NCBI RefSeq assembly: GCF_006345805.1
Contig: NW_021832581.1
Location: 1 to 59,723 of the forward strand
DNA from: Octopus sinensis
Taxonomy: Eukaryota
DNA: 59,723 nt
Direction of reading: 5' to 3'
Shown: piece after piece, positions 3,002 through 37,628 of the stretch
Position numbering within the stretch: the stretch's first letter is position 1
Layout: each line of letters opens with the position of its first letter
Notes under the pieces: generated by a model
Seen by the model: the letters and a program-made list of their open reading frames with translations, nothing else
What the model was told of the DNA's origin: nothing
The model's database searches: none
Translations under genes and position numbers: made by a program

Positions 3002-3218
3002 TTAAATGTGAATTTTTAACAAAGGAGCCAAACCAGTGAAGGGATCACTATGTGGCTGATATACCTGCTAGAATTAGTAGCTAAATTCACACGATATCAC
3101 TGTACAGAAGGGCATATTGGACAATGTGGTTGTGGGTTCTCTTTGGAAATAGGCATGATGGTCCTGACTGGAATGCGTTTGATCATAAGTCTCTGTGTAA
3201 CAACAGTTACACAGAAAT

Positions 3219-3418
3219 TTACTTTGCGTCTAATGACAGACATTCCATCGCAGCAAAACATTCAGCTTCTTCAAGAGCTGCACTTAATGTTGCGTGTGTC
3301 CGTGTTTCTGGGTCGCAATTTTTGAACCATTCGTAAAGAATCTGGTAGCCTTGTTTTACAGTGACATTAGACTCATCATCAATTTTCAGTTTAGTTGTAT
3401 CAACTCCTAAAACAACAA
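3219..3418 (-). CDS. Terminal death-domain exon (V)[65 protein letters not shown]
   Basis: ttttgcAG acceptor, phase 1; ORF 3219..3512; Q-x-Y-x-I-L-x-x-W and T-x-x-x-L-x-x-A-L death-domain patterns; TAA stop. Confidence 0.88.
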
Positions 3419-6400
3419 CTGCAAAAGACACAACAATAAGAAATAAATGCAACAACATTGACAATAACATAAAACGCTGTGTACTGTAGGTTGTTATGAA
3501 TATAACAAACAAACTTTATCAATAGAGAAGTAAAAAAAGAAATAGCTAAGAAACATGAAAAATATAAGACATTGTTTTCTATTGACAAAAATTACAAAGA
3601 GTTTGAATTAAACGAGATTTTTAAAGAAAATTAATTGAAAATTATACTTGAGAAAATATATGGTAAACGAGGGCAGGAAAACTTTTGTGAAGGCAAAAGT
3701 ATATCAGAACCTCAAGAATTAACATTGACCTCCAACAGTGAAAGCATATGATCCATCCATTTCCTCTGCTCAATATTCTTGAAAGGGCTGTGGGGAAAGA
3801 GTCCTCAGGCACCTCCTCCATAGGGTCCTATCAGAAGCATCCATCATTAGACATTCTGCTTGTATTCTATGATGTGAAGAACTAAGACTATGGATATCAT
3901 CCAACCATTTCTTTCTTGGCCTCCCCCTCGGTATCGTGTTCCATTGGTTTGACTTTGAGAACCTGTCCTGTAATTCATTGCTGCAACACCCTGATCACAT
4001 GTCCGAGGTACCACAGATGTGGAGGAGACGTGGCTCAACCTGGAGAGACTCCCAGATCTCTGAACTGTAAATCCTATTGAGTACCAAAGACCCTTTAGAA
4101 GAACCCCATACATCTGTCATATTCTGTTAGATTTCAGAACTGGTATTCAAAGGGTCATGAAAGTACTGTCCCTCAGTGTCATCTACTACCTTGCAAAGAT
4201 CCCAAGAGGACACTGGAAATCGAATGATCAGTGATTGTCCAACAGTCGATAATTCTAAGTCAAATTCAATCCCATTTTAAACTTCTCCAATGAACTCCAG
4301 GTTCGATCAATTCTACAGAGCCTATTCAGTTATTATTATGTCAGTCTGAATGAGAGATGCCCCCTGCAGTTCGGCTTGACTTGTGAATGTTCATTTTCTG
4401 GTAAATTCCCTTAAAGGAATTCTCTGTTTTCGCCTGAGGAGAATGATAGGATTTCGCTGTGTCACCTTTATTAAATCTCTTTTTATTGAAGCATTTACAG
4501 ACATATGTCATGTGGTAAAGTCATTGCAAAATGGCAAAATAAATTGGAATTATCAGCTTCCAACACAATAACCCAATAAATAATGGCTGCAAGAAGAACC
4601 AAACTCAAAGTTTTCTGTTGAATAAGATTCTTTGTTTTAGATGTGAACTTTGGTACTTGTCCTTCATTACAATAACCTAACAGTGAACCTAAAGAAAATG
4701 TAAAACAAATTCACTCACCTGTTTACCCTTAAACAATATATTTTAGTTCCTCTTCCAAAAGATAATATTAACGCCATTTGTGTTTTCTAGTTTATCCATT
4801 ATTACCAACCATGCTAACCTCAGTGGATATTTTATGAAATATCAGGAATATCGTAAATAAAATTGTCATACAGGTAACCTATCAATTGGAAATGAGGAAT
4901 GTAACTTGTTCTCATTCATTCTGACAAATAAAATAGATCAGGTGAAAGTAAAATATATAGAAATCAAATATACTCACCTATTTGCCACCAATCACGTCCT
5001 AACCTCTTAGCCACTCTCAGAAGATCCCTCTCCTTCAGAACTGGACTCTCTGAAATAAATATTTCCAGCTTTTATAATTGATTGTAAAACTTATTTATCT
5101 CTATAAATATTCTGTAGTTTATTGTTGTGGGACATTGTTATCATCAGTGGTTGGCTGGTGACCACTAGGGTTTTGCTCAGTATTTTTATACTTTCCATTG
5201 TGGGACCAGGTAATAGCTCAATATTTAGGCCCGCAACAAAATAGACTAACTTTCCGAAACCTTGTTTCTCTTTAACAGAGACATCCTACATAATCTAACA
5301 ATGTTGCAATTATTTCATTTAATTATCATTTCATGAGACTGTTTCTTCTCATAGTTCTCTCTCTCCTTTCATATATCTGTACCAAATCTATGACATGTGA
5401 CTGTCCTCTGAACTCTACACGTCACTAACCACCATTCTCCTCATCTTCTGCTAAAGTCCAATATCATCCAATGTGGTCTCCAAAGATCTCGTCACAAATG
5501 CATGACACACCACTTCAAGTAAAATAAACGTAATACCTGTTCTCTTTGCTGTTGGTAATCTTGAATTTTATCATCCCACATCTCAGTTCACCTGGTCATT
5601 ATCTGGTACAGGGAATATTTTAAGACTCCTTAATAAAGGTGAGCAATGATCAGTTCTCCAAAGATGAAACAAAAAGTGATATCAGGTGTCCTAAAACACT
5701 GTACACTTGTACAAAACCCCATTCACTACATACAACTTGACATCTACACATTATTGCAGGGAAGACATCTGAAATGGTACAAAAGGACTGATACTCAAAA
5801 ATATATAAGAAAGACGGGAATACAAAGTGCGAGCTCCAAATCTTTTATTTTCCAGAATGTTTGGCATATTTATTTCTTTTAACCCATCTTCGTTCTGTGA
5901 CTTGATCTCAATGACTTTACTCTTATTGCAAAATTAGGTAGTGTACCATCGTCGTAATAGTTTTTCAAGTTTCCCTTTAAACTTCATCAGGGTTTCTCCT
6001 GCTATTTTGACCTTCACTTGTTTCTGCTGACCTTTCACAAATGACGGGCTGCATTACTCATTTGCATTGAACCACATTCTTCACCAAGTTCCTCAGTCTA
6101 CCCAGTTAATCCAGAACTATTTGCATATCCTTTTATTTGTTGTTACTATTGTTATGTAATCCATTAATGTCTTCTCGAGTGTTTTCCTTTGAGCCATTTC
6201 TTATCAATCTGCTGATTTAAGTAACCTCTCCATAACAATCACAAACCAAATGACTGATATTGTAGAAACTACAGCAATTCCTGCTTCAAAATGATACCAG
6301 TCTGCCGAGAAAGTTTTCCTCATGAACTGCATATCGAAATTGTTATAGCAGCTCCTCATCAGATCCTTAATCTTTTCTCATATATAAAACAGGTCCACTG

Positions 6401-9400
6401 CTTCCATCAACAATTTGTTTGCTAGAGAACCATAAACCAGATCAAATCACACAACATTCAATCCCTTTTATTCTTCTTTCCGTCTTGTATCACATCCTAG
6501 ATTTAAGACACATGTTCCACACAGCCAGGAATGCCAGAGGATTCCAGTCTTCGAGATACTTTTAGTCCCATATTCATTATTCTGTAGATTTACAGTTGAT
6601 CTCTTTGTGAATACAACCTTGTAAATCTTGCCATTTATATTCAAGGTTGAAATTAGTCTGAACTAATCAATCGGTATTTGATTGCTGGTTTCAATGGACA
6701 TTTCAAACTGTCTATGAATGGGAATCATTGCTTTTGCTTTGGATCTCCTGCATATATCCATCCAGTTCATCTTAATGTATTTTAGCTTTCTGTTCTCAGT
6801 ATCTGCAAACAGAATTTCCTTGTAGAAGTTAAAGAGGCGTTTAATTTTGTTGACGACATGATCATTTTTCTAGGGCTTTTGGAGCAAGATTGTGCCCAAG
6901 GCCCTTTTTAAAGTGGTTGATGTTAGGAAAGGCACATCACCATAGAAAAGCCGGAATGTGTTCCTCATCCAATCAAGGCGGACAGTATTTGTTAATAAGA
7001 ACTGACATGGATAGGAATCATCCATCCAATCGATAGGAGCATAGACATCAGATGATAAATGATGAGGGTCATCAGTGTCTATCTTGGAGAGAGAGGGAGA
7101 GAGAGAACGGTTGTCTCAACATCAAACCTAATACTTTTACATGAATAAAGACAATGTTTAGGGGATGTAATGATAAATTTATTATCAGTGAAAAAAAAAA
7201 GGCAGGGTGTTCACATAAGGAACACATTTCATTGTAAATCTGTCACATTATGAGAGATATTTGCCTAAATAGCAACAACAGCAATAACCTATCAGTAAAC
7301 TTAGTAACTACATATTTTAGTCCTCCGTTTCAAAATACAGTATTAATTCTATTGTCTTCTAAATTATCCATTTTCCGAACCATGCCAACCCCGTTGGATA
7401 TTTTGTGAAATTCCATTGATATCAAAATGTCTAATAGAATTATTATACAGCTAATATTTCAGATGTAAATTAGGAATGGATCTTGTCCTCAGTCATTCTG
7501 ATAAACTACAAATGCTCAGGTGAAGGTTAAAAATATAGAAATCCATGAGGTACTGTTATTTGCTACTCACCAACTGGCTGTGATGTTGTCAAGGCATCCT
7601 TCACAGAAGTTGGAGTCTTACGTTTTATAGTATAATTTCATTATAGTTATTGATAATCAACACTTTATTATTGTGGGAAGGGCATACAGCTGTAAAAACT
7701 AGTTCGTAGGGATGTGGTTGTGTACCCATGTAAAAGTTATGTTTACTTTGAGGGTAACAAGGTGTAAAATATCAGATGAGGGTACAAGATAATGCTATGA
7801 AACATTCACAAAAACAAGTTTAAGAGAGTTAATGAATGATAGCTGATTAATTATCATGTTAATGCGGCGTATAAACACTAACTATCAATATAGATTGTAT
7901 AAAATCTGTGTGAAGAACATGTGACATTTGTTACATTAATATGGTTGTGTCTCAGCACAGTTGATATTATGGTAGTTCCATGAGAAACCATAGAAAAATG
8001 TAACATTTCCAGTACCGAATACTAATGATGAATTCTTTTCTTGGTCAAATAACAATGACCAGGTTCCATGATCTAATTTCACAACATAACAATCAAGTCG
8101 GAAGTAAAACCAAAATGTGAAAGACTGAAAACAGTGACTCTCTTACAATTGAAACCATCTCAAAGCCAACAATTGTCAGTATAACGATGTCTATATATGG
8201 ACAAGAAACGTTATTGAAACATCGTAACAAGCGATAATTATATATATATAGTTAGAAAAGAGTTGTGAGTTCAAGTCACACTGGAATCTCATACGTTCAT
8301 TCCTTTCCATGTATTGCATATGTTAGCATCAATGTTTTGTTCAAATGTGAACATATGTTCTCTGTTCAATATGAATGTTATCAAAATCACTGAACCGGTT
8401 TTCACAATCGATATTATTATACTGAGCTAATATGTTATACCAGACAGGAAACTACTGTAACAATCTAAGACAAAGAATTATGATGAGTTACTGGAAGACA
8501 TCATCATCATCATCAACATTCAAAGTTTGTTTTCCATGCTGGAATGGGTTGGAAAACTTGACAGGATCTGACAAGCCAGACAACTGCACCAGGCCCCAGA
8601 TGGTTTCTTTGGCATGGTTTTCTATGGTAGGATGCTCTTATTGATGCCAACCACCTCACAGAGTGTACGTGGCCCCTTTGTGTAAAGCACAAGTACTGGC
8701 ATATTTAGCCAAAAGACATGTAAGACAAAGACCCCACAGCCGGGAGAGGGGGTATCGCAAATTTCTCTCCCCGCATCCTGATTCTTTTGTCATCACATTC
8801 CCTTCTCACCTCCTGAAAATGTCATCAGCTTCAGTGAAGCAAAACATCATAGAGTAGTGAGGACCGTCTAATTATATAGAATGTAACACAACTTGATTAC
8901 TACTTGTGCTATAATTAAATGCTCCCAGAACACACTAGGAAGTGGTTGGTGGAAACTAGGAAAGATGACACCACAAGTTTGAAAGGAACGTTTGATATTG
9001 TTGGGAAATTGATGATCATTTCTAATGCTTGTGCGACAATAAAATATACCCAGGACCCTTTATAAAGTGGTTGGGGTTAGAAAGGGTCTACCACCTTAGA
9101 AAAGCTGCAATGTTTAAGTGAGATGTTTTCCTCAACAAATGACGGTTGGCAGTAATTTCAGATACAACTGACTTGGACAGTGATGACCCACCTAGTGTAT
9201 GGGAGCATGGAGAGCAGATGAGAAAAGATGAAGATGATATCATTTATTGTATTGAAACTTTTAACCAGCATCTTTCTTGAAAAGACGGAGAGAAAGAGCA
9301 TGAGTGAGAGAGAGAGAATGAATGAGTACAATGAGATGACAAACAGGGCGAATATTCTCCTTAACGGGAGAGAACCGTTTCAGGGTTTATATTTAATTTT

Positions 9401-12400
9401 TGTATCTTTCTTTCTGCGAGTGAATGAGTAACTGATGTTTGCATAAAGTACATTTATTGGATATTCGTGTTGTTGTAGAAGAACAGAATTTCTTTATAGC
9501 TAAGCATTCAAATGAAATCTAGCATTGGAACCTGTTCTCGGTCATTCTATTGACCAAAATAGCTCAGTAAAAGCTAAAATTTATAGAAATCAATTTTGTA
9601 ATGTCATTCTATACTCAGCACGTGGCCCTTCTACTGTCTGGACCTCTTTGTCTTCAAATATTGGCCTTGCTGAAATAAATATTTCCAAGATTATACTTTA
9701 TAGTAAAATTTCTTTAATGAACATCGATATTTTATAATTGTGAAATATTCCTATAACCAATAGTCAAGATTAACCGTCCCAAATCCCCCCACTCTGTAGG
9801 TAACGAAGGGCTTCTCCCTAAGAGTGGAAAGCAGATTGTATGAGACTTGTGTACGGACATATGTACAACACAATAATGAAAGATAGGCTGTGAAGATAGA
9901 AGACATGCAAAGGGTTGGAGACAAATGAAGCCAGCATGCTCCACTGGATGTACAACATCAGTGTTCAGGTAAGTCACAGTGGAAATGTCTTAAGAGAAAA
10001 TCTGGGTATAAGAGTCATCCGATGTAGAGTTCAAAAGAGAGATCTTTCATAGTATGGTTATGTGATGCATATGGATGAGGTGATCAGCATAAAGAGATGC
10101 GGATCTCTAAATGTGGAGAGAAGCTGAGGAAGAGGAAGACTGAGGAAGACATGGGACAAAGTGGTGAGAAATGATGTTCAGATGCTGAGCTTCACACGGG
10201 AAGATAACTAAAACGACTGAGACAATCAGCAATTTTCTGTGCTTGAAAAGACCCAACTGGCTAAGTGACATCGAGGCCATCAAGGCATGTCCTTTATGTG
10301 CATACCTTCAACCCTGAACACAATCTGTCCCCTAAAAAACATCCCCATTAACCTAGAAACCATACACTCTTTCCCCACCATGATCCTTAAAAGGTGTAAA
10401 ATGTTAGGTGAGGGTACACGATGTTCCTATGACAAAATAAGTTTACATTTCAGACATACAAATGTAAGAGAGTTAATGAATTATAGCTTATTAATTATCA
10501 TGATAATTGGGTACATATGTGATACAATGGCACTGTGCTTGACGGTGCAATACTAGATATTAATATAGATTGTATATAATCTGAGTAAAGAACATATAAC
10601 CTTCATTACAATGAATATGATTGTGTCTCAGCAAACGAAGAAAGATATAACCAAGTCCACTGCCAAATACTAATGATTAATTCATTTCCTGGTCAAATAA
10701 CAATGACTATCTTTCATTAAATAATTTGAACGCAACGATGTCAGTGTGCACACAAGGCAGAGTGAAGAGGCCTGAGAGAAGTGTTAGACATAAGAAGCAT
10801 CAGATGTGGTGCACAAGAGAGACAACTGCACTGGTATGGTCATGTGTATGGATGAGAAGAGCCGTGGGAAGAAGTGTTGCACCCTAACAGTGGAAGGAAC
10901 CCGTGGAAAGGGGTGGCCCAGGAAGACAGGGCATGACGTGGTGAAACGACCTTCGAACGTTGGGCCTCACAGAGGTAATGGCAAGAGACAGAGACCTCTG
11001 TAAATATGACGTGATTAAGAGGACTTGGCAAGTGAAGTGAGATCACAGCTGTAGCCTATACCAGTGGCGCATAACCAGCCCTTTTTAAAAGTACCCTTGA
11101 ATCACAGAGTGATAAGTTGCGCTTGAGAAGAATTTCTGAGTCAAGTAAAACCAAAAACCAGAAATCACAAATCAAAATCAAATCAAGATCGAAATCAAAA
11201 TGGAAATTGTAATTATGGCCGATGCCAGTGCCGCCTGGCTGGCACCCGTGCCGGTGGCCCGTAATAAGTACCATTCAAACATTATTTGTTGCCAGTGCCG
11301 CCTGACTGGTTCCCTGTGCTGGTGGCACGTAAAAAACACCATCCGAACGTGGTCAATGCCAGTTCCAACTTCAACTGGCCCCTGTGTCGGTGGCACGTAA
11401 AAAGCACCCACCACACTCTCGGAGTGGTTGGCATTAGGAATGGCATACATATGTGGAAACCTTGCCAGATCACATTGGAGCCTGACGCAGCCTACTGCCT
11501 TGCCAGTGAAATCGTCCGACCCATGCTACTATAAAAACGGACGTTAAACGATGATGATGATGAGGAGGATGATGATGATGATGTTGATGATGAGTTCCAT
11601 GACCAAATGACAATATTAACTCTATTGTGTCTTCTAATTTGAACATTATTACCAACAGCATTAACCTCAATGGGTATTTCATAAACTCTCAGTAAATCGA
11701 TATCTTTAATTCAATTATTATACAGATAATCGTTCAATTGGAAAATAGGAATGGAAGCTGTTTTCAGTTATTCTTTCGAGCACAATATACTCGGGGGAAG
11801 AAAACCTTACAGAAATCAATTGGGAACTATTATTTTATACTCACCAATTGCCTGAGATGCAGCCCCTAATTCCTGACATGTAGCCTCTGTTTGTACACAC
11901 CTGTCCTCAAACTTTGGAGCCTCTGAAATAAATATTTCCAAGTTTTACATTTAATACTAAACTTTCTTCATCTTTATTTTTATTAAACCCTATCTTTTTA
12001 TCGTGAGACATTCAATTCCTGTTGTTATTGGTCAAATGTTGACCATTATGGTTTTGGTCAATATTTCTGTACTTTCTACAGTGGTCCCATGTAATAGCTC
12101 AATATGACCACAATAAAACAGACTATCATTTCTAAATCCACCCTCACTTCTCTCTCTCTCTCTCTCCCTCTCTCTAAAAACACATTAAATATTCAAACAA
12201 TGTTGCAATTATCTTGTTTAATTAACACTTGATAAGAGTTTTCTCTTAGCTTTGTCTTTCTTTTCTTATAACTGTGCCACAATTATGGTATGACACAGTC
12301 CTCTCATCTCTAGAATTCACTAATCAACATTCCTCTCTAATTAAGTAAAACTGAGCCCATAAAGACATGTCCTTTATGTGCATACCCTCCATCCCACACA

Positions 12401-14591
12401 CAATCTGTCCCCTAAAAATCATCTCCACAGCATGATCCCTAACAAGGTGCAAAATGTAAGGTGAGGGTACACAATGTTCCTATGACAAAATAAGTTTACA
12501 TTTCATACATACAAATGTAAGAGTTAATGAATTATAGCTTATTAATTATCATGATAATTGGGTATATATGTGATACAATGGCACTGTGCTTGACGGTGCA
12601 ATACTAGATATCAATATAGATTGTATATAATCTGAGTAAAGAACATATAACCTTCATTACTATGAATATGATTGTGTCTCAGCACAGCTAATATTATCGT
12701 AGTTCCATGAGCAAACGAAGAAAGATATAACCAAGTCCACTGCCAAATACTAATGATTAATTCATTTCCTGGTCAAATAACAATGACTATCTTTCATTAA
12801 ATAATTTGAACACAACAATCAAGACCAGGGTGAAACACTCAGAAATTGTGCCTCTTTTAGCATTAATATCATCTAAAATCTAACAAGTGTGAGAAAAAGA
12901 ATGACTATATGGATGGTAAATGTTGTTCAAACAATAATGTGTAATAAGTTATATATAGTTACAAACAGGATTTGTGAGATCAAGTCACACAGGGAACTCA
13001 TATTTTAATTCCTATTTTATATTTATGTCAACACCAATATTTTGTTTAAATGTAAACATGTTCACCGTTCAATACTAAAGTTAATATCTAATCAACGTTA
13101 ATGATCATTATACTTATAATCTTAGAGATTTGATTTTTAATGTCTTTAATTTATAGCAAAGTTATTCTGACCTGAGATATTCAGGGTACGTACCTAAACA
13201 ACATATCATGACAGACATCTGGCTACATAACAACAACAACAACAATAACCTATGAGAAAACTTAGGAAAGACCTTAGTAGTAAAAGAAACAAAATCTTTC
13301 TCTCGTTAACTCACCTGTTTACAAATAAACACAAAATGTTTTAGTTCTCTGTCCTAAAGACATCATTAACTCTATTATGTCTTCTTATTTAACCATTTTA
13401 CCAACACGTTAACCTTGATTTATGAAATTTCAGTGGAATATTTAATAGAATCCTTTTTACAGCTAATGCGGAAACTAGGGATTGACGAGCGATTATAAGA
13501 GTTGAAGAGGCCCTGTAGTAAGGTGAGGATCGGCAATGGGTATAGTGAAGAATTCCGGATAGAAGTAGGAGTTCACTAGGGATCATTCCTAAACCCCTCG
13601 TTTTCATCATAGTCCACCAGGCAATAAGAGAAATGACAAATCAAAAGCAATTCAAGATCGAAATCAAAATGGAAATTGTAGTTGTGACCGATGCCAGTGC
13701 CGCCTGACTGGCACCTGTTCCTGTGTCACGTTTAAGTACCATAGAAGCATAGGTCCTTGTCACTGCCGCCTGACTAGTTCCCTGTGCCGGTGGCACGTAA
13801 AAAGCACCATCCGAACGTGGTCGATGCCAGCCCCCCCCCCCGACTGGCTCCTGTGTCGGTGGCAAGTAAAAGGCACCCACCACACTCTCGGAGTGGTTGG
13901 CATTAGGAATGGCATACATATGTGGAAACCTTGCCAGATCACATTGAGCCTGGCGCAGCCTACTGCCTTGCCAGTGAAATCGTCCGACCCATGCCACGAT
14001 AAGAAACGATGTTAAATGATGATGAATGATGATGTTCTGTGACCAAATGACAAAATTAACTCTATTGTGTCTTCTAATTTGAACATTATTACCAACAGCA
14101 TTAACCTCAATGGGTATTTCATAAACTCTCAGTAAATCGATATCTTTAATTCAATTATTATTCAGATAATTGTTCAATTGGAAAATAGGAATGGAAGCTG
14201 TTTTCAGTTATTCTTTCAAGCACAATATTCTCGGGGGAAGAAAACCTTACAGAAATCAATTGGGAACTATTATTTTATACTCACCTATTGCCTGAGATGC
14301 AGCCCCTAATTCCTGACATGTAGCCTCTGTTTGTACACACCTGTCCTCACATTTTGGAACCCCTGAAATAAATATTTCCAAATTTTACATTTAATAATAA
14401 AATATCTATATCTTTATTTTTATTAAACTCTATCTTGTTATTGTGAGACATTCAATTCCTGTTGTTATGGTCAAATGTTGACCATTATGGTTTTGGTCAA
14501 TATTTCTGTACTTTCTACAGTGGTCCCATGTAATAGCCCAATATGACCACAATAAAACAGACTATCATTTCTAATCCATCACTTCTCATCT

Positions 14592-14644
<53 letters not shown>

Positions 14645-16134
14645 TAACAATTATACTCATGCAATTATCTCATTTAATTAACACTTGATGACAGTTTCTC
14701 TTCATTGTCTTCTTTTCTTATAACTGTGCCAATCTATGGCATGGCACAGTCCTCTCATCTCTAGAATTCACTAATCAACATTCCTCTCTAATTAAGTAAA
14801 ACTGAGGCCCATAAGACATGTCCTTTATGTGCATACCCTCCACCCCGCACACAATCTGTCCCCTAAAAATCATCTCCACAAGCCAAATTCCATACACCCT
14901 TCCCCAACATGATCCCTAACAAGATATAAAATGTAAGGTGAGGGTACACGATGTTGCTACGACAAAATAAGTTTACATTTCAGACATATAAATGTAAGAG
15001 AGTTAATGAATTATAGCTTATTAATTATCATGATAATTGGGTATATATGTGATACAATGGCACTGTGCTTGACGGTGCAATACTAGATATCAATATAGAT
15101 TGTATATAATCTGAGTAAAGAACATATAACCTTCATTACTATAAATATGATTGTGTCTCAGCACAGCTAATATTATGGTAGTTCCATGAGCAAACGAAGA
15201 AAGATATAACCAAGTCCACTGCCAAATACTAATGATTAATTAATTTCCTGTTCAAATAACAATGACTATCTTTCATTAAATAATTTGAACGCAACGATGT
15301 CAGTGTGCACACAAGGCAGAGTGAAGAGGCCTGAGAGAAGTGTTAGACATAAGAAGCATCAGATGTAGTGTGCAAGAGAGACAACTGCACTGGTATGGTC
15401 ATGTGTATGGATGAGGAGAGCTGTGGGAAGAAGTGTTACACCCTAACAGTGGAACGAACCCGTGGAAAGGAGTGGCCCAGGAAGACAGGGGATGACGTAG
15501 TGAAACGACCTTCGAATGTTGGATCTCACAGAGGTAATGGCAAGAGACAGAGACCTCTGGAAATATGATGTGATTAAGAGGATCCGGCAGATGAAGTGAG
15601 ATCACAGCTATAGCCTATACCAGTGTCGCATAACAAGCCCTTTTAAAAGTACCCTTGAATCACAGAGTGATAAGTTGCGCTTGAGAAGAATTTCTGAGTC
15701 AAGTAAAACCAAAAACCAGAAATCACAAATCAAAATCAAATCAAGATCGAAATCAAAATGCAAATTGTAATTATGGCCGATGCCAGTGCCGCCTGGCTGG
15801 CACCCGTGCCGGTGGCACGTAATAAGTACCATTCAAACATTGTTTGTTGCCAGTGCCGCCCGACTGGTTCCCTGTGCCGTTGGCACGTAAAAAGCACCTT
15901 CCGAACGTGGTCGATGCCAGCCCCAACTTCAACTGGCTTCTGTGTCGGTGGCACGTAAAAAGCACCCACCACACTCTCGAAGCGGTTGGCCTTAGGAATG
16001 GCATACATATGTGGAAACCTTGCCAGATCACATTGGACCTGACGCAGCCTACTGCCTTCCAGTGAAATCGTCCGACCCATGCTACTATAAAAACGGATGT
16101 TAAACGATGATATGAGGATATATGATAAGATGAG

Positions 16135-16166
<32 letters not shown>

Positions 16167-19100
16167 GTGACCAAATGACAAAATTAACTCTATTGTGTCT
16201 TCTAATTTGAACATTATTACCAACAGCATTAACCTCAATGGTATTTCATAAACTCACAGTAAATCGATATCTTAATTCAATTATTATACAGATAACGTTC
16301 AATTGGAAAATAGGAATGGAAGCTGTTTTCAGTTATTCTTTCAAGCACAATATACTCGGGAAGAAAACCTTACAGAAATCAATTGGGAACTATTATTTTA
16401 TACTCACCAATTGCCTGAGATGTAGCCCCTAATTCCTGACATGTAGCCTCTGTTTGTACACACCTGTCCTCACACTTTGGAGCCCCTGAAATAAATATTT
16501 CCAAGTTTTACATTTAAAAATAAACTTTCTTCATCTTTATTTTTATTAAACTCTATCTTGTTATTGTGAGACATTCAATTTCTGTTGTTAATGGTCAAAT
16601 GTTGACCATTATGGTTTTGGTCAATATTTCTGTACTTTCTACAGTGGTCCCATGTAATAGCCCAATATGTCCACAATAAAACAGACTAACATTCCTAAAT
16701 CCACCCTCTCTCTCTCTCTAAGAACACATTAAATATTCTAACAATGTTGCAATTATCTCATTTAATTAACACTTGATGACAGTTTTCTCTTAGCTTTGTC
16801 TTTCTCTTCTTATAACTGTGCCAAATCTATGGCATGGCACAGTCCGTCTCATCTCTAGAATTCACTAATCACATTCCTCTCTAATAGTAAAACTGCGCCC
16901 ATAAAGACATGTCCTTTATGTGCACCCCCCACCCCGCACACAATCTGTCCCCTAAAAATCATCTCCACAACCAAATTCCATACACCCTTCCAACATGATC
17001 CCTAAATCCTAACAAGGTGTAAAATGTTAGGTGAGGGTACACAAGGTCCTATGACAAAATATGTTTACATTTCATACATACAAATGTAAGAGAGTTAATG
17101 AATTATAGCTTATTAATTATCATGATAATTGGGTATATATGTGATACAATGGCACTGTGCTTGACGGTGCAATACTAGATATCAATATAGATTGTATATA
17201 ATCTGAGTAAAGAACATATAACCTTCATTACTATGAATATGATTGTGTCTCAGCACAGCTAATATTATGGTAGTTCCATGAGCAAACGAAGAAAGATATA
17301 ACCAAGTCCACTGCCAAATACTAATGACTAATTCATTTCCCGGTCAAATAACAATGACTATATTCTATTAAATAATTTGAACGCAACGATGTCAGTGTGT
17401 ACACAAGGCAGAGTGAAGAGGCCTGAGAGAAGTGTTAGACATAAGAAGCATCAGATGTGGTGTACAAGAGAGACAACTGCACTGGTATGGTCATGTGTAT
17501 GGATGAGGAGAGCTGTGGGAAGAAGTGTTACACCCTAACAGTGGAACGAACCCGTGGAAAGGGGTGGCCCAGGAAGACAGGGCATGACGTGGTGAAACGA
17601 CCTTCGAACGTTGGGCCTCACAGAGGTAATGGCAAGAGACAGAGACCTCTGGAAATATGACGTGATTAAGAGGACTCGGCAAGTGAAGTGAGATCACAGC
17701 TGTAGCCTATACCAGTGGCGCATAACCAGCCCTTTTTAAAAGTACCCTTGAATCACAGAGTGATAAGTTGCGCTTGAGAAGAATTTCCGAGTCAAGTAAA
17801 ACCAAAAACCAGAAATCACAAATCAAAATCAAATCAAGATCGAAATCAAAATGGAAATTGTAGTTGTGACCGATGCCAGTGCCGCCTGGCTGGCACCTGT
17901 TCCTGTGTCACGTAATAAGTACCATAGAAGCATAGGTCCTTGTCACTGACGCCTGACTAGTTCCCTGTGCCGTTGGCACGTAAGAAACACCATCCGAACG
18001 TGGTTGATGCCAGCCCCCACCCTGACTGGCTCCTGTGTCGGTGGCACGTAAAAAGCACCCACCACACTCTCGGAGTGGTTGGCGTTAGGAATGGCATACA
18101 TATGTGAAAACCTTGCCAGATCACATTGCAGCCTGACGCAGCCTACTGCCTTGCCAGTGAAATCGTCCGACCCATGCTACTATAAAAACGGACGTTAAAC
18201 GATGATGATGATGATGAGTTCTTGACCAAATGACAAAATTAACTCTATTGTGTCTTCTAATTTGAACATTATTACCAACAGCATTAACCTCAATGGGTAT
18301 TTCATAAACTCTCAGTAAATCGATATCTTTAATTCAATTATTATACAGATAATCGTTCAATTGGAAAATAGGAATGGAAGCTGGTTTCAGTTATTCTTTC
18401 GAGCACAATATACTCGGGGGAAGAAAACCTTACAGAAATCAATTGGGAACTATTATTTTATACTCACCAATTGCCTGAGATGCAGCCCCTAATTCCTGAC
18501 ATATAGCCTCTGTTTGTACACACCTGTCTTCAAACTTTGGAGCCTCTGAAATAAATATTTCCAAGTTTTACATTTAATAATAAAATTTCTTTATCTTTAT
18601 TTTTATTAAACTCTATCTTTTTATTGTGAGACATTCAATTCCTGTCGTTAATGGTCAAATGTTGACCATTATGGTTTTGGTCAATATTTCTGTACTTTCT
18701 ACAGTGGTCCCATGTAATAGCTCAATATGTCCACAATAAAACAGACTAACATTCCTAAATCCACCCTCTCCCTCTCTCTCTCTCTCTCTCTCTCTGTCTC
18801 TAAAAACACATTAAATATTCTAACAATGTTGCAATTATCTCATTTAATTAACACTTGATAACAGTTTTCTCTTAGCATTGTCTTTCTTTTCTTATAACTG
18901 TGCCAAATTTATGGCATGGCACAGTCCTCTCATATCTAGAATTCACTAATCAACATTCCTCTCTAATTAAGTAAAACTGCGCCCATAAAGACATGTCCTT
19001 TATGTGCATACCCTCCAACCCGCACACAATCTGTCCCCTAAAAAGCATCTCCACAAGCCAAATTCCATACACCCTTCCCCAACATGATCCCTAACAAGAT

Positions 19101-22100
19101 ATAAAATGTAAGGTGAGGGTACACGATGTTCCTATGACAAAATAAGTTTACATTTCAGACATACAAATGTAAGAGAGTTAATGAATTATAGCTTATTAAT
19201 TATCATGATAATTGGGTATATATGTGATACAATGGCACTGTGCTTGACGGTGCAATACTAGATATCAATATAGATTGTATATATCTGAGTAAAGAACATA
19301 TAGCTTCATTACAATTATATATATGAATATGATGGTCTCAGCACAGCTAATATTATGGTAGTTCCATGAGCAAACGAAGAAAGATATAACCAAGTCCACT
19401 GCCAAATACTAATGATTAATTCATTTCCTGGTCAAATAACAATGACTAACTTCATTAAATAATTTGAATGCAACAATCAAGACCAAAGGGTGAAACACTC
19501 AGAAAACTGTGCCTCTTTTAGCATTAATATCATCTAAAATCTAACAAGAGTGAGAAAAAGAATGACTATATGGATGGTAAATGTTGTTCAAACAATTAAT
19601 GTAATAATGTATATTATATATAATTACAAGAAGGATTTGTGTATTCAAGTCAAATTCAATTTCTGATTGTATATTTTGTATAAACACCAATAATTTGTTT
19701 AAATATAAACAGATATTCACGGTTCAATACTAAATTTAACATTTAATAAAATTAAGTTCATGATGAATATTCTTATACAGAGTTAACATTTAATTAGAAT
19801 TTTCTAATTTGCAACTACAAAATGTATTCTAACCAGAGACATTCAGGGTACACAACCCCAGAAAATACAACATATTACGACAGACATCTGGCTACATAAC
19901 AACATCAAGAATAACCTATCAGAAAACTTACGAAAAATCTTAGTAGAAAAACAAACAACTATCTTATTAACCTAGGTTTTACACCTAAAAAATAACATTA
20001 TGTTCCCTCTTCCAGAAGACAATATAACTCTATTGTGGCTTTTAATTTATCCATTTACCAAACATGTTAACCATGACTTTATGAAATTTCATATTTTTAA
20101 TACAATTACTTTAGAGCTAACCTTTCAAATGGAAATTAGAAATGGGATTTGTTCTCCACCATTCTAATACGCAAAATAGCTGAGGTGGATGTACAATCTA
20201 TAGAAATTAATTAAGTTCTCTAATTTTAAACTCATCAACTGTCTCTGCCACAGTCTGCACTCCCTTCTCTTCAAACTTTGGACTCTCTGAAATATGTGAC
20301 TCCAAGTTTTATATTTATTTATAGCACAATCCCTTTATATTTATTAATAATCTATATTTTATTATTGAGAGACATTCATACCGTCAATGGCCAACCGGCG
20401 ATCATAATGCTTTTGGTCAATATTTTTATACTTTCAACAGTGGACCCATGTAATAGCCAATATTTAGCTCCAAAACGAACTCTAGTTGATCTTTGTAAAT
20501 TTCCTCTCTCTGTTAAGATATCCTACATAATCTAACAATGCTGTAATTATATCATTTAATTATCACCTAATAACAGTTTATCTGTAGGCTTTGGTTTCCT
20601 TGCTTATATCTATGCCAAATCTATTGCATTTTCAAAACCCTGATCTTCACTAACAACCTGTTTGATTCCAGTGTCAACAAATTTATTCATCAAAGATATA
20701 ACAACAAACACATGTCACAACCACTTCAAGTAGGTAAAACATACACCTAATCTCTTTGTTAAACATTGTTGCTGATAATCCCTAATTTTAACTTCACAGT
20801 TCACCAGAATGCCATCTTATTCAGGAAATATTTGAAGGTTTCATGATCTGGTTGGAATGTGACACTCAAGTCAGAACCAAAACCTAAATTTGAGAGACGG
20901 ACAAAACAGTGTCTCTGTTAGCCTTGATATCACCCAAAGACCAACACAGCAACATGGAGTTGCGTGTTGAAGTCTCAAACACAGGTGACACATACATTTT
21001 ACTCCTTTAAAATATTCTACTAATTTTAATACTTTACCAAAGATGACACTGATGTCCTTGTAAGTACTGTTGTATTTACTTATCTTCTAATAACTCATAA
21101 TTAATTATAGAGTTGATGGAGATTTATTGATACTTCAGTTACTCACTAATTATCTTGCAGAATCCTCCATTATTTTTATGTTGCAGACTACAACCCTCTT
21201 GAAGTGTGACATGTTTCCTACTTGGATAAGGTCAATGTTTAGTGGATGTAGTGTGAGAGATATACTATTACAGAGAACAGACACTAGGAACACCTTTTAT
21301 CATAAATCTGCCAGATTATGGCAGACCTCTGTCTACATAACAACATGAAGTATATTATTCTACACAATAAGGGCAATGGGACAAGCAGGACAAACAGACA
21401 GATCAGCAAAGATTTTCTTACCAACTCGACCTCTGCTTGTTACAGGTTTTAAACACTTCAGACATTGTTGAAGTGGAACGTTTGAACATCCCTTACATAT
21501 TACAAGGTGTCCACATGGATGGACTTTTGTTGTGGCCGCTTTATTTCTGCACCACAAACATCTGTGGACAAAACAGAAACATCCAATCAATAACATTCAT
21601 TTATAACAAATATTACATTATTTACATGTTCGGAATAGAGAATATTATAAGATACATCAGTAACTACCAAGAGTACAGCAGAAAATCTTCTTTAAACATT
21701 ACATACATACAGATATTTGTGTAGTTAAATGGCATGCTCACACACCACACACATACATACATACACACACATGCATACATACATTGATAAATGTTTGTCT
21801 TGACCCTGACACATCATAGAAATTTGGTTGACACACAGTGAACTACATATATTCCAGAAATATATTTCACTTCTAACATCGAACTCATTTCTTCTGAAGA
21901 AATATATCTACACAGGTTTCTTTATATACACATACTGTATTGTATACATCCCGTCAACACAGATTAGCAGATGAGGTTTCCAGCACTGCAGAGTGGCAGA
22001 AATTACCCGAAACTAGTACTGGTCAGCTAGACACATCCCTAGAAGATGGTAGGGGTTCGCTCCCTGCTGCTCAATTTATCGGATGCAGTTCCGCATTGTT

Positions 22101-25100
22101 AACCAACTGGAGGAGTTGTTCTCTTGGGGTTCAAAATTCGCAGTGGAGTCCATTGGAACAGATAGTCACGCTGGCGTGGCCTACGAGTATTACTTATATA
22201 TATACATATACATATACATATACAGAGAGAGAGAGTGAGAGAGAGAATTCACGAAAAGAAAAAACAAGACGAAGACAAGTAGTGTAGACAACAAACATAT
22301 GTATAAGTTTAACGCTCGGGAAGTGAAAAAGTCTTTAAAGTTTCGAGCCTACACTCTTCAACAGGAAGGAATACAGAAGGAAACAAGGAGAGAAAATAAA
22401 GAATGTGTAGTGGCTAGCGATCTATCATATATGTATATATATATACATATTCAATTCAATTCAATATTTTTTTTCAATTCATTTTTTTATTGGCTCAAAA
22501 AGCGAAAGCAAGGTTATGTAGGAGGACAGGGAGTTATGTACAGAGAGGGTGGTCATACAAAGAGTTCAGACCATTTCTGGTCAAGGGAGACTTTGAACCG
22601 AGCGGTCGTCGACATCTTCACTATGTCGTCCGGCAGCTTATTCCACGGACCCGCAACCCGGACGGAGAAAGCCCCTCTCCTTCGATTGAGATGAAATTGT
22701 CATAGATAGAGCTTTTCGGAATGACCCCGCAGCCGACGCTCTGGAGCAGGAGTAAAGAACAGCTCTTTCGAGAGGTTACACTTTCTGCTTATGATGTTGT
22801 GAGCAAGAATGAGATCACCACGGCGTCGTCGTTTTTCTAGAGAATAAAGGTCGAGCGTCTTCAGCCTTTCTTCATAAGACAAATGCTTAAGACCAAGAAC
22901 CATGCGGGTAGCCAGCTTCTGGACTCTTTCGAGATTATGTATGTCTTTGAGGAGATAAGGAGAAGAGGCTTGAATCCCGTACTCCAATATGGGTCTCACC
23001 GGCGTGACATAGAGTGGTAGGAATATGGCTGCTGTGAGCATTCCGAATGACTGTCGAATCAAGAACAGAACTCCGCGTGCTTTGGTGGCAGCATGGCCGC
23101 ACTGGGCCGAAGGCGAAAAGGAGGAATCTACCAAGATACCCAGGTCCTTTACCTGATCGGTCCTCTCCAGCAGCAGACGACCCGGCTCGAAATCAAGTTG
23201 AGTTGCAGGAGGAGAGCCAACAGGCAGATGACAGCACTTTGACACATTCAGACACAGGTCCCGTTTGTTTGACCACCTCCGAACTTGGTGGAGGCATCGA
23301 CGAAGATCCTCTATATCACTGCGAGGAGCAACCAGTTTGACATCGTCGGCAAATAGAAGGGTGTGTTGCGTGAGGTCGTCGGGCAAGTCATTTATGAAGA
23401 CTAAAAACAATAACGGCCCAAGCACTGAACCTTGAGGCACGCCACTGCTCGCACTGGAGATGTCGGACCGCGAACCATTAACTTGGACTTGGAAGGAGCG
23501 ATCTGAGAGGAAGGCACCAACCCATCGTACAATATCCGGATGGAAACTATATGCTTGAAGCTTGACAAGTAATAGGCGGTGGTTAACCGAGTCAAAAGCA
23601 TTGGCAAAGTCCAATAAAACGATGTCAACAGCATCACCATCATCCAGGATACGCGCCACCAATTCTTCCATTACCAGTAAGCTGGTCAAGCATGATCTCT
23701 TCAGCACGAAGCCGTGTTGGGAATCAGAGATAGAGGCTGTGTTTTGGAGGTGGAGCAACATACTTTTCTTAAGGATGGTTTCGAACATCTTGCTGAATAT
23801 TGAAGTAAGGGAAACCGGTTGGTAGTTAAGTGGGTCTTTGCGGCACCCTTTCTTGAAAATAGGGCAGATTATCGCTGTTCTCTAGTCCGCAGGTACAACA
23901 CCCGTCGCTAATGACATATTGAATAGAAGTGTTAAAGGTTGGCAGATGACCGGATCCAACGCTTTGATAACCTGTGGGTGTATGCCATCAGGGCCGTGAC
24001 CCTTGTTGATATCGAGGCCTTGAATAACGCGTTCGACTTCGTCCCGAGTGATGACCAATCTAGGCATTGGAGGTACCGATCTATCAAATGGAGGGGGTTC
24101 ACGACCATCATCTTGTTTGAAAATTGTCGAAAAAGCCTCGGCAAATAACTAACTCTGCTGATAAGGGTCCTCAATCGATACACTTGTTGATTATGTGTCA
24201 CGATGTGTCACGATGCTTCCCCTTTATTGATGGCGTCGTATATTTGTTCCTTAAACGTGACATCTTCTTTTCTACTACATTAAATTTTTCTCCTCTTCTA
24301 ATTTGGCTGACTACAAAACTATGGAAAATTGCCACTGTCATTTCCTTATCCAAGAAGGGTATAAAAAGGTGACCCCTTAATAACTACCAATTATTGTCCA
24401 ATCATTTTCATTAGCTGCCTCATCAAATTTATGGTGTTCTGTGACAGAGAGAGATACTTTGAAGAATCTGGAATTCACATAACCTTATTCCATCCTCACA
24501 ATTTGGATTTTTCCCTAATTCTAGCTGCTGTAACCAACTCACAGAATTTCTTCAAGACAATCACCTAAATAACATATTGTGGCTGTTGGGTAGATGTTGT
24601 TTACCTCGACTTCAGCAAAGCCTTTAATTCTCTGCCACACAAACGAATTATGTTGAAGCTGTCTGATTTTTGGGTGAGGTTTAATTTACATAAATCTCTG
24701 ATGTCGTTCATTCTTGCTTAATAAGAAGTAGTCACAGCGTAAAGATACTATAGAATCACACCTGAAGATTGGTAGGATCTGTTTTAGTCCATTGTTGTTT
24801 CTGGAAATGTATTAATTTTATTTGATGCCAAACTGAAGCAGGTTACTCTACGCTACAGATCATTGCTTCAGCCTCATCTGGACATTTTGCAGCAAGGTGC
24901 TGTCTAAATTAAGCTAGTTGTAGATAGGTGCACCACTATACATTATGGAAGGTAAACCCAGAACTGGACCTCGGGATTAATGTCAAGAAGGACATTTGAC
25001 GGATGATTCACATTCCTAAAGTCATCAAAAAGATCGAAAGTATCTTAGCATCTCTCTGAAAACGCTTTGTCTTGCACTTTGTCAAGTTGTCTGTTTAAAG

Positions 25101-26053: not shown

Positions 26054-28076
26054 TTGTGTGTATATTTGTCTGTCTGTGTTTGTCCCTCCACCATCGCTTC
26101 ACAACCAATGTTGGTGTGTTTACGTTCCCGTAATCTAGCGTTTCGGCAAATAAGTACTAGGCTTACACAGAATAAGTTCTGGGGTCGATTTTTTCGACTA
26201 AAGGCAGTGCTCCAGCATGGCCGCAGTCAAATGACTGAAACAAGTAAAAGAGTGATATTTAAATTTCAACAGACAAAGAAAGTTTTGTATATTCACTGAG
26301 GGGGAAATGTGTCTGCTTCTTAAGTAGCTAATACAGAGAGATGTATGGCAAAGAAATTGCCAAATCTTATAAAATACGGGAGTGAAAGGCGACTAAAACA
26401 CCTAGTAATGGTATATGTGTTACTTGAATTATTTACGTTTCCTGGCAGGTTTTTTTTTCTATGAAGATATGTGGCAATATTCCATCAGTATTTGCAGAAA
26501 TATAATATATACACAGTTGGTGTGTGTTTGTAGGTTATTTTTCTATGAAATCATTCTTAATATTGACTGATTCGGACATAGAAGAGTGAGAAAAAGATGT
26601 TGGTAGACAGATAAATTCCACTTAATTCTAAGTAACAGTCTCAAAATGGAATTCATTCACTTCATTATTTAGATCTATATTTTCCTATTGATCACAAATC
26701 TTTAAAATAGGGAACGAAGAGGGGTAGGTTGGGGTGGACAGTGAAGTATAACTGGCAACACTACGAATCATGTGAATGTAATCAAAATCGTGTTCTTTCT
26801 TTGATCTCCTGACAACTGCATATTGTTTATTGTGTGGCCTTTGACAAAAACACTAGCGACAGTATAATGTATGGTAGAATTAAAACGAAATAAACATATA
26901 AACATGATTATATACAAAATAGAAAATGTACTGGTTTATCTGTTCCATTGCCAGGAAATACTTACTGTGGTGGTAAAACGCTTCTAATTTTCTTCTCAAA
27001 TTTGGGTCCTTAATGAGGTCCAATGGTGTGTTATTTTGTTGTTTTTATGGTGAAAGTCCGCTCCCTGGCTGGCGAGATATCCCGAAACTACTACCCAGAG
27101 AGCATTTCATCCTCTTCAGGTTAAGGGAGTGCAGCACTACAAATGATGAAATATAAAATGATGACAATATTACACAAATATTCAAAACAAATGCCCCTAA
27201 TTACACAAAAGTTCATCTAAATTTACTATAGGTTGTTTATCCACCAATTAAAGCAATTACAAAGTATTGAGTTCCTACATAATCTTTAATTGAGTCCATT
27301 TCCATTTTCATGTTTTTACTTTATTTTCAACACTGAGACACCCTCTAATATATTGTCATTACATTGAGCAGGACAAACCGTATTGATTAACATCAAGCTT
27401 ATTGTTAATTAATGAGTAATATTTACTTGTCAATCATATCACAATATATTCAATAGAAAAATCAAATATAGGAAGAACAAACCAACAAGAACCTATCTAT
27501 ATAATTGGCTTGATAAAGGCGAGCATGTGGCCATAAGAAAGAGTATTGTATATATAAATATAACACAACATGAGAAGAAAGAACATAAGTTATATCAGAA
27601 ACAAAAACACCTATAACATAACAAAGTCAATACCACACAGACATAACCAAACATATCAATAATGTTTCCATAATTAAGCAAGAAGCATCTTTGAATGATG
27701 ACGGTAAAGTAAAGGAAGCAGGAATTAGTGTCAAGTCAGAAGAGTAATGGAGGAGTATTTTTAATCACGGACAAGTGAATTTTGGAAGAGGCGACTTGCA
27801 AGTCTACCAGATAGATGGAAGAGCATTGTAGAAAATGAAGGAGAATATGTTTTAGATTAACAGAAAAAAGTACTTTGTTTATCTTAATTTTGAAAAATAT
27901 AAGAATTATAAAAAACTGCTTCATTTATGAGATGACAGCAAAAAGTCCAGTAGTATTGAAGTCCATACTGTTGATGACATCAGATAGCCGAATACAGTAA
28001 ACGGGCTTTAAACAGCATTTTACAAGATATATACTCAAACTGAAAATCATTACTTGTGTGTGTTTGTGTGTGTGAG

Positions 28077-28696: not shown

Positions 28697-29377
28697 ATAT
28701 ATATATATATACGCAAACAATTTAAAAACTTACTTCGTTTAGTAAATCCAAGGGTGCATCCTCGGAATCAAACACTTCTCTTTCCACGGCCAGGTGCAAA
28801 CAGCTGTTACCTTCACCATCAACAGCATTTATGTCTGCACCCAGTGCTATTAGCTTGTGTGTCATTCCGAGGTGACCCCGGGAAACGGCTTCAAGCAATG
28901 GTGTCCTTTCCTTTTTATTCTTAATATCCAACTGAAGTGAACCCTTTGTGGAAGTAAAAATAGAAAATGAAAATTTACATGAAAATCAGGATGGATATCA
29001 ATGTGTCATTATTGTCTTCTACTGTATACTTGATCAAACTGATCATGTACATTTGATGTTTGTCCGTAAAATCAACCTTCGTAAGATCCTCTAGATGTTG
29101 CTATGAGAATGTGTTCTAGACAGGATAAAGATGTCCTAAATAGATTGTTTCAGCTTAATCTACCTTTCTTCCTAACTATAGTAAGTTTTAGGGGAGCTGA
29201 ACACGAGTGAACACATGATTAACAGATCAAGACTAGTAAAGAAGAATCAAAATTTCTAAAGTATACTTTTGATGTTGCTATAATTAATAAGAGGTTCATA
29301 AAACTGTTGAGGTGGTTAGTGTCCACCACCATGAAATTAATGCGCGTGCACACACACATACACAGAGACACACTCAA

Positions 29378-36193: not shown

Positions 36194-37628
36194 CAACTAA
36201 TATAGGATGAATTTTTTTTACAGAAAAAATATTCCATCAAAAATGTGGCAGCATATTAAATACTTTACAGTTAATTATAAACAACTTATAAATAAGGGCT
36301 AAAGAAAAGTATTTCAATGCCAATTTGCTGATAACAGACTTTTAAATCGTCAATTTCCACATATTATTTACTCGCTACAGAAAAAAAACACGAAGAACTG
36401 AAATCGGGAAAAGCCGGACGATAGAATGTTTTTTAAAAAGTTCGTTATTTCTATATTGAATCAATTTTGGAATTAATCTCATAATAGATTCTTTCGTCTT
36501 CAGTAGAACATACGAAAGGATATAAATAAGATACTTACGTCACAACCCCGAGATAGTAAGATCTCCACAGCATGAGGTTGATCACTGAGAGTAAAAGATA
36601 GAAACATTGACTAATTTACATTAAATATGAAAATATTTTGGCTTTGAGACGAAACATTATCGTCATCATCATCACCATCATTATCACCTGCACTATTATC
36701 ATCAATATCATGCTCATCAACATCATTACCATCATCCTCATTGCCACCACCTCCATCATTGACATAATCATCATCATCATCATCGCCATCATCATCATCG
36801 CCATCATCGCCATCATCATCATCGCCTTCATCATCATCACCATCTTCATCACCTGCACTATTATCATCAATATCATGTTCATCAACATCATTACCATCAT
36901 CATCATCATTGCCACCACCTCCATCATTGACATAATCATCATCATCATCATCGCCATCATCATCATCGCCATCATCGCCCTCATCATCAATCGCCTTCAT
37001 CATCATCACCATCATTATCACCTGCACTATATCATCCTATTTGTTCATCACATCATTACCATCATCACATCATTGCCACCACCTCCATCATTGACATAAT
37101 CATCATCATCATCATCGCCATCATCATCATCGCCATCATCGCCCTCATCATCATCGCCTTCATCATCATCACCATCATTATCACCTGCACTATTATCATC
37201 CATATTATGTTCATCAACATCATTACCATCATCCTCATTGCCACCACCTCCATCATTGACATAATCATCATCATCATCATCGCCATCATCATCATCGCCA
37301 TCATCGCCATCATCATCATCGCCTTCATCATCATCACCATCTTCATCACCTGCACTATTATCATCAATATCATGTTCATCAACATCATTACCATCATCAT
37401 CATTGCCACCACCTCCATCATTGACATAATCATCATCATCATCATCGCCATCATCACCATCATTATCATCACTATCATCATCATCACCATCATCATCATC
37501 ATAGCCTTCATCATCATCACCCTCATTGCCAACACCATCATCATCATTATCATCTTCGACATCTCCAATATCATCATAATCAATATTATCATCATTCATT
37601 ACCACTATAATCATAATCATCACCATCG

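Follow-up and report, generated by a model that had tools for sequence, protein, structure and literature searches.

Tandem exon duplication, exon-wise splicing of motifs, and multivalent LC8 clients are already known. Here we compare such systems with an ankyrin-RING-death-domain gene of Octopus, situated on the minus strand of contig NW_021832581.1 of Octopus sinensis (assembly GCF_006345805.1), of which the whole stretch of 59,723 nucleotides (nt) was analyzed and is called the window. In this gene a series of small linker units lies between the RING exon and the death domain; these units almost certainly originated as copies of D1, the first death-domain exon, and some of them carry a K/R-x-V-Q-T motif that probably binds LC8. 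As described in the available parts of the respective papers, mutually exclusive homologous exons (PMC9741552) also stem from a symmetric exon duplicated in tandem within one gene; their copies, however, substitute for one another and keep the core, whereas the octopus copies are serial, have lost the core, and have gained a short motif. The multivalent LC8 clients ASCIZ, GKAP, and dynein intermediate chain, as far as the accessible sources go, display several TQT/VQT-anchored motifs in predicted disorder beside interaction domains. In contrast, the octopus gene provides one predicted motif per exon, each traceable to a death-domain helix, and their number is varied by duplication and splicing. 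In the NCoR co-repressors (PMC4554918), alternative splicing similarly alters how many linear motifs a disordered region contains, but those motifs arose in one large exon that introns divided afterwards, and a folded-domain exon is not described as their source in the part of that paper at hand. The accelerated evolution of exons in duplicated segments (PMC3906575) is comparable in that duplicated exons differ more than flanking introns; it concerns primate segmental duplications and, in the accessible part, does not include the conversion of a domain into a motif. The mollusc BIR-DD-RING proteins (PMC8917759, in part) have an architecture that differs from the octopus family, and the preprint 10.1101/2023.09.15.557927 does not mention exons. 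In the literature searched, nothing was found on the octopus ankyrin-RING-death-domain family or on a death-domain exon becoming an LC8 motif, although the family may be mentioned in journals available by subscription or in supplements to papers on octopus genomes.

MIB1 and MIB2 possess N-terminal Mib-Herc2, ZZ, and Mib repeat domains as well as two or three RINGs. With these Mind bomb proteins the octopus family shares ankyrin repeats followed by a C3HC4 RING, and there is a weak structural match to the MIB1 ankyrin repeats (8v0e, E 0.021). In contrast to MIB1 and MIB2, the octopus proteins have one RING and a C-terminal death domain, the gene of the window begins with ankyrin exons, and five scanned paralogs gave no Pfam match to Mib-Herc2, ZZ, or Mib repeat domains up to E 10. 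With the last exon, D2, as query, 37 protein matches from 71 candidates were obtained, all of them from O. vulgaris, O. sinensis, or O. bimaculoides, and most of these relatives carry the database label MIB1/MIB2-like.

Homology of the Linker Units to the First Death-Domain Exon

D1 (4978–5049) is a 72-nt exon of phase 1-1 that encodes the death domain from helix 1 into the beginning of helix 2, and D2 (3219–3418) contributes the remaining death domain and the stop codon. In transcript order, D1 is preceded by U20 (20236–20286), R4 (18468–18545), R3 (16408–16485), R2 (14285–14362), R1 (11845–11922), U9 (9619–9669), and U7 (7571–7618), all eight units being of phase 1-1 and, like D2, on the minus strand. 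R1 to R4 are 78-nt linker exons with the motif DRCVQTE, U9 (DKEVQTV) and U20 (EKGVQTV) are 51-nt linker units, and the D1-derived U7 of 48 nt is without a VQT motif and matches the 16-residue linker of paralog P0037. The unit coordinates of the initial annotation all hold.

That annotation had proposed that the linker exons were derived from D1, and nucleotide similarity indeed extends beyond the splice signals. The flanks of the seven copies are 58–76% identical to those of D1, and the exon bodies are 45–59% identical in register. Self-BLAST aligns 4755–5437 with 11603–12332 (66.7%, E 2e-54) and 4722–5391 with 19978–20624 (69.5%, E 3e-65), which supports the proposed paralogy of the flanking introns, although the ranges first given for them extend about 120–160 nt past these alignments. 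Downstream flanks of all seven copies match the D1 flank at z 6.8–16, and upstream flanks of R1–R4 and U20 do so at z 13.5–21.5, those of U9 and U7 being short or weak. A flank profile search of the window recovers exactly eight units and a remnant of a ninth at 13365–13484 (minus strand), which consists only of a downstream intron flank (nhmmer E 2.5e-13).

Inside the exons, the similarity to D1 is significant without splice signals for six of the seven units and weak for U7. After cutting 3 nt from each end, D1 scores z 3.5–4.3 (p 0.001–0.0035) against R1–R4 and z 3.1, 2.6, and 2.0 against U9, U20, and U7, respectively (2000 dinucleotide shuffles); when 8 and 4 nt are cut from the ends, the signal is retained for R1–R4 (z 2.2–3.1) and U9 (2.1), and in this gapped alignment U20 (z 1.1) and U7 (0.6) are no longer significant. 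Ungapped and in register, R1 agrees with D1 at 19 of 34 positions (nt 9–42, p 5e-4) and U20 at 21 of 42 (nt 9–50, p 0.0035). Exon identity to D1 amounts to 37–40 of 72 nt for R1–R4 with one 6-nt gap and, without gaps, to 30/51 for U20 and 23/51 for U9. As regards the end-to-end alignment of the exons suggested earlier, D1 and R4 share only 7 of 24 residues as protein, and similarity to D1 is weak in the 3′ third of R (13/27 nt, p 0.02). Nor does D1 end in I-G, as had been read, the D1–D2 junction being I-V. The flanks of R1–R4 are 95–99% identical to one another, and a tree of the eight downstream flanks, as called for in the initial annotation, supports R1–R4 as its sole clade, but otherwise is an unrooted star.

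D1 as the Ancestral State

D1 aligns ungapped over 24 residues with the start of the human PIDD1 death domain (E 0.011–0.015). In the structural model of P0002, a near-identical paralog product, residues 202–286 reach predicted local distance difference test (pLDDT) values of 71–89, and residues 206–290, which include D1, match the FADD death domain with Z 11.2 and a root-mean-square deviation of 2.4 over 84 aligned residues. The model matches death domains of FADD, THOC1, ankyrin-G, RIPK1, and PIDD, and the top seven VIA rows are all death domains. Foldseek places the RIPK1 death domain at TMt 0.76 and E 0.068 and, with the whole model, finds no match at E 0.001; residues 208–229 appear as a single long helix. 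A single-sequence model of P0019 reached a pLDDT of 40.6 and was set aside. As modeled, D1 and D2 together have the helical bundle fold of a death domain. Pfam PF00531 is matched by four of five scanned paralogs at 13.5–17.9 bits, below the gathering score of 22.6, and not by the window exons alone; a precomputed PF00531 label is found on 7 of 38 matches of a search, and the top three Atlas matches are Death at 0.90. A full-library search yielded 51 proteins, most of them unnamed; they include octopus proteins outside the family, as well as proteins from other animals, with death domains that display the same helix 1–2 pattern. Among the named matches of this and the other protein searches there was no squid or cuttlefish orthologue. 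The PIDD1 alignment, the structural matches, and the presence of this pattern in unrelated death domains indicate that D1 is the old state.

The paralogs offer a graded series of forms. In P0048 and P0050, the RING is joined to D1 without a linker, whereas P0040 and P0044 contain a decayed full-length 24-residue D1 copy without motif directly before D1, 10 of its 24 residues being identical to D1 of P0042. In P0038, the linker is 17 residues long and retains A-K-R of D1, and P0041, P0043, and P0044 contain 17-residue motif linkers in arrays. When linker peptides were compared in register with a profile built from 21 different D1 peptides, 18 of the 19 scored at p<0.05 and 14 of these below 0.0026 (shuffles), whereas none of 18 D2 control windows scored. 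It has to be held against this series that the exon borders of the paralogs were inferred from protein models, which are annotations. In a death-domain tree of 42 paralog rows without outgroup, 4 of 25 inner branches are starred, and the gains of linkers cannot be ordered.

It would be very improbable that only the intron flanks are homologous, having been duplicated or converted, with exon bodies from elsewhere, or that D1 was itself derived from a linker exon. In favor of such a view, exon identity lies below flank identity and the flank tree lacks root and resolution, but it is largely refuted by the ungapped in-register similarity inside the exon, by the intermediates in the paralogs, and by the resemblance of D1 to PIDD1 as well as to death domains in unrelated proteins, from octopus and from elsewhere. 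Homology of the linker units to D1, with D1 as the source, therefore seems nearly certain to us, and the original idea that an exon of a structured domain was duplicated and came to serve as a linear-motif exon is supported in both homology and direction by the trimmed tests, PIDD1, and the paralog intermediates, the motif matching the LC8/DYNLL consensus.

Probable Addition of Copies in Series Before the Death Domain

Contigs of four runs (X1, X6, X10, and X15) were aligned to positions 3150–12400 at 90% likeness, and the results on joints cover 15 listed of 54. X1 and X6 were treated as RNA-like only because they contain splice-shaped joints, none of the listed runs being recorded as RNA. 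Both show the D1–D2 joint (3418/4978) and an R–D1 joint (5049/11845) that skips U7 and U9, and X1 in addition shows an R–R joint (11922 back to 11845), all with CT..AC ends; none of these three is among the joints listed for the DNA-like runs X10 and X15. The R–R and R–D1 joints are among the best supported, and no R–D2 joint is listed. Among 39 stored protein models, which are annotations and in many cases isoforms of the same genes, D1 is present in 32 and retained in 17 of the 17 that bear R, a 51-nt linker is joined to D2 in one (P0017), and the RING is joined to D2 in three. Since every R-bearing model contains D1 and no R–D2 joint is listed, the copies are very probably in the main added in series before an intact death domain instead of being substituted for part of it. 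This conclusion is weakened by the fact that X1 and X6 are RNA only by guess and that joints counted at 90% likeness may stem from paralogs.

The initial annotation had considered, as an alternative, that the copies act as alternative first death-domain exons which are spliced to D2 and replace helices 1–2, leading to an altered or disabled domain. Frame and splice signals would permit this, P0017 joins a 51-nt linker to D2, P0014, P0015, P0034, and P0051 join the RING to D2, so that D1 can be skipped in models, and 39 of the 54 joints lie outside those listed. However, not one of 17 R-bearing models skips D1, no joint from R to 3418 is listed whereas R–R and R–D1 joints are, and these same data speak against a mutually exclusive use of the copies. 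Furthermore, the core residues are not kept between copies: in all linker units of the window the invariant W and V of D1 are lost, R having S and E instead and the 51-nt units having the W deleted. As the Pfam Death match of P0019 vanishes in P0017, a skip of D1 would yield a broken and not a new domain, and we consider such a replacement improbable.

Two contigs of X1 leave the R exon at 11844 into about 65 nt that are absent from the window; these may belong to an alternative downstream exon in a paralog, the use of which could drop the death domain. A 30-nt loose end after R in X1 was searched for in the window and not found. Joints 5327/12298 and 9595/11830, which are also present in the DNA-like runs, link homologous intron positions of different units and may represent unit mosaics or deletion alleles that arose by unequal crossing-over, or may result from the mapping of other units in two parts.

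A Candidate LC8 Motif in the Linkers

Codons 10–12 of D1, CTT CTG AGA, face GTA CAA ACA in R, GTG CAG ACT in U20, and GTC CAG ACA in U9, so that L-L-R of D1 corresponds to V-Q-T in the linkers, each residue being reachable by a single base change and the whole by three; the acidic and the basic residue that precede V-Q-T are already present in D1. The LC8 consensus is given as [D/S]K-x-[T/V/I]-Q-[T/V]-[D/E] without proline at positions −4 to 0 (PMC3078936), VQT is given as an LC8 anchor (PMC12017986), and the LC8 dimer brings two client chains together (both sources, in their accessible parts). R meets six of the six consensus positions if its arginine is counted for lysine, U9 five, U20 four, and D1 one, and the chance of an R-type match is 1.2e-6 per position. 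At the same place, other paralog linkers have DKGVQTD (P0064 and P0066) or the canonical K-E-T-Q-T (P0057, P0063, and P0072), and the linker 153–201 of the P0002 model is predicted as coil at pLDDT of about 30. From its sequence, the K/R-x-V-Q-T motif of the linkers probably binds the LC8 (DYNLL) dimer.

Several points tell against this assignment. The K/R-x-V-Q-T core occurs in only 9 of 19 linker peptides and is absent from the other 10, and the motif count is partly circular because the peptides were chosen by their central word. A number of copies have lost the glutamine (K, R, or W instead), and the 24 strict motif matches represent one repeated sequence and not independent events. According to the available part of PMC12057147, non-TQT anchors tend toward weaker LC8 binding, and according to that of PMC9741552 an extra homologous exon is expected to show low pLDDT even if it is able to fold in the place of its twin.

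Some of these points fit the view that the D1-derived copies are a mere disordered spacer of variable length between RING and death domain, in which VQT arose incidentally in a single early event of decay and was passively copied. Motif-less derivatives exist (U7 and the 24-residue copies of P0040 and P0044), glutamine is lost in many copies, splice sites are broken in three of seven units here, and one chance origin is plausible because only three point changes are needed. On the other hand, linker-to-linker exon distances are no larger than those of the flanks while length and 3′ parts vary freely, and motif changes in other paralogs often remain within what the LC8 consensus allows (T in place of V ahead of Q; D or E behind T). 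We consider a mere spacer rather unlikely, though the most serious of the alternatives, and prefer LC8 binding.

Each R exon also contains two cysteines seven residues apart. Further linker types are present in P0056, P0064, and P0066, i.e., 24-residue motif linkers of the exact length of D1 and a linker of heptad S/T/P/Q repeats.

Rate of Change After Duplication

Between D1 and the linkers, exon distances (0.67–0.99) are about twice those of the flanks (0.36–0.57). The exon and flank intervals are separate for R1 and R4 and overlap for U20 and U9, and Fisher tests of exon versus flank divergence from D1 give p 0.002–0.02 for R1, R4, and U9 and 0.11 for U20. Among linkers, in contrast, exon distances (0.36–0.61) are no greater than flank distances (0.44–0.68). 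Exons that are far from D1, in linkers no further apart than their flanks, fit a single phase of rapid change that followed duplication and then gave way to a slower pace. Divergence is as great at third codon positions as at the first and second, which detracts from such a reading, since homogenized or constrained flanks could explain the gap between exons and introns as well as selection could; Nei-Gojobori counts on 13–16 codons do not suffice to demonstrate positive selection. The 21 nt of D1 that the 51-nt units lack have TAG at both ends, which suggests that the shorter form originated from a microhomology deletion between the two TAG words.

Gene Layout and State of This Copy

Mapping nine paralog proteins back by tblastn places the gene at 45819–3219 of the window, which is animal DNA rich in repeats. 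The exons follow, from 5′ to 3′ in the transcript, as ankyrin exons, RING exon, the series of small units, D1, and D2. All are on the minus strand: ankyrin-repeat exons and the start exon have approximate tblastn ranges of 45742–45819, 38579–38755, 36530–36589, 33926–34081, and 28734–28949, with one small exon among them not located by tblastn, and are followed by an ankyrin-tail exon (26970–27136) and the RING finger exon (21422–21561), both found by tblastn, the RING corresponding to PF13920 in the paralogs.

The common acceptor and donor that had been claimed for the units are present in part. An 18-nt acceptor is common to D1, U9, and R1–R4 and a donor to D1 and R1–R4, but U9 shares only the acceptor, and three of the seven copied units have broken splice sites, namely U9 (donor CT), U20 (donor AT), and U7 (no acceptor AG). 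U9, although skipped by the R–D1 joint, is used in paralog models. A further difficulty for our explanation is that, as assembled, this copy is frameshifted upstream, exon 26970–27136 changing frame three times relative to the paralogs, which may reflect an assembly error or a pseudogene. Private single-column gaps in the flanks of R2–R4 (10–12 each in 953 columns) hint at assembly errors in this gene copy, and a decaying copy is possible.

Open frames in introns at 22700–23881 and 39331–40947 resemble, by eye and without family search, reverse transcriptase of long interspersed nuclear elements. A very high-copy interspersed repeat at 11184–11492 is copied in each R repeat of 2.1–2.4 kb and reaches a contig depth of 17,000–174,000. 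Outside the window, P0070 of O. bimaculoides, annotated as a GPR126-like adhesion receptor, has behind S/T/Q-rich repeats a C-terminal death domain related to that of the octopus ankyrin-RING proteins, and the P0001 model comprises RING, death domain, leucine-rich repeats, and a second D2, which may be an annotation fusion.

Proposed Origin and Significance

IAP-type RINGs work as dimers. The folds nearest to the RING of the octopus proteins are the RINGs of cIAP2 and XIAP (Foldseek E 0.006–0.02), and the proteins are predicted to be ubiquitin ligases. We favor, with a little more than even confidence, the explanation that the linker units are tandem copies of D1 together with its intron flanks, that the R copies are spliced alongside an intact death domain, and that their K/R-x-V-Q-T likely binds LC8 and would thereby pair two ligase chains in parallel between RING and death domain. 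According to this explanation, a block of about 0.7 kb with the phase 1-1 exon D1 was duplicated, and as all copies are multiples of 3, any subset of them keeps the frame. Copies freed from the fold would then have changed fast, CTT to GTN, CTG to CAG, and AGA to ACA leading to V-Q-T, and the 51-nt form would likely represent a 21-nt deletion. The motif exon was amplified further, in the case of R1–R4 recently, as their nearly identical flanks show, and likely by unequal crossing-over. Exon number and splicing would finally set the count of LC8 sites and hence the dimerization of an IAP/MIB-type RING and the clustering of death domains, presumably in an innate-immune or cell-death pathway. Because an LC8 dimer pairs chains and IAP-type RINGs work as dimers, LC8 sites between RING and death domain could plausibly switch or grade both ligase activity and death-domain clustering. 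Our views are evenly balanced on the broader proposal of an octopus family of death-domain ubiquitin ligases in which LC8 valency is set exon by exon, the motif cassette arose through three point changes in the first helix of the proteins' own death domain, and the full series of intact exon, decayed full-length copy, and motif exon is preserved in paralogs.

As disordered sequence does not preserve its history, the origin of short linear motifs can seldom be traced. In this gene, the pedigree from a folded-domain helix to a candidate motif for hub binding is retained in the intron flanks, and intermediates and a path of three mutations are available as well, which makes the origin of the motif directly testable on extant peptides. 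If this holds true, a segment of a folded domain likely became a docking site whose copies can be counted, and the expanded ankyrin-RING-death-domain family of Octopus, mislabeled as MIB2-like, may be a splice-tuned regulator of immunity or cell death.

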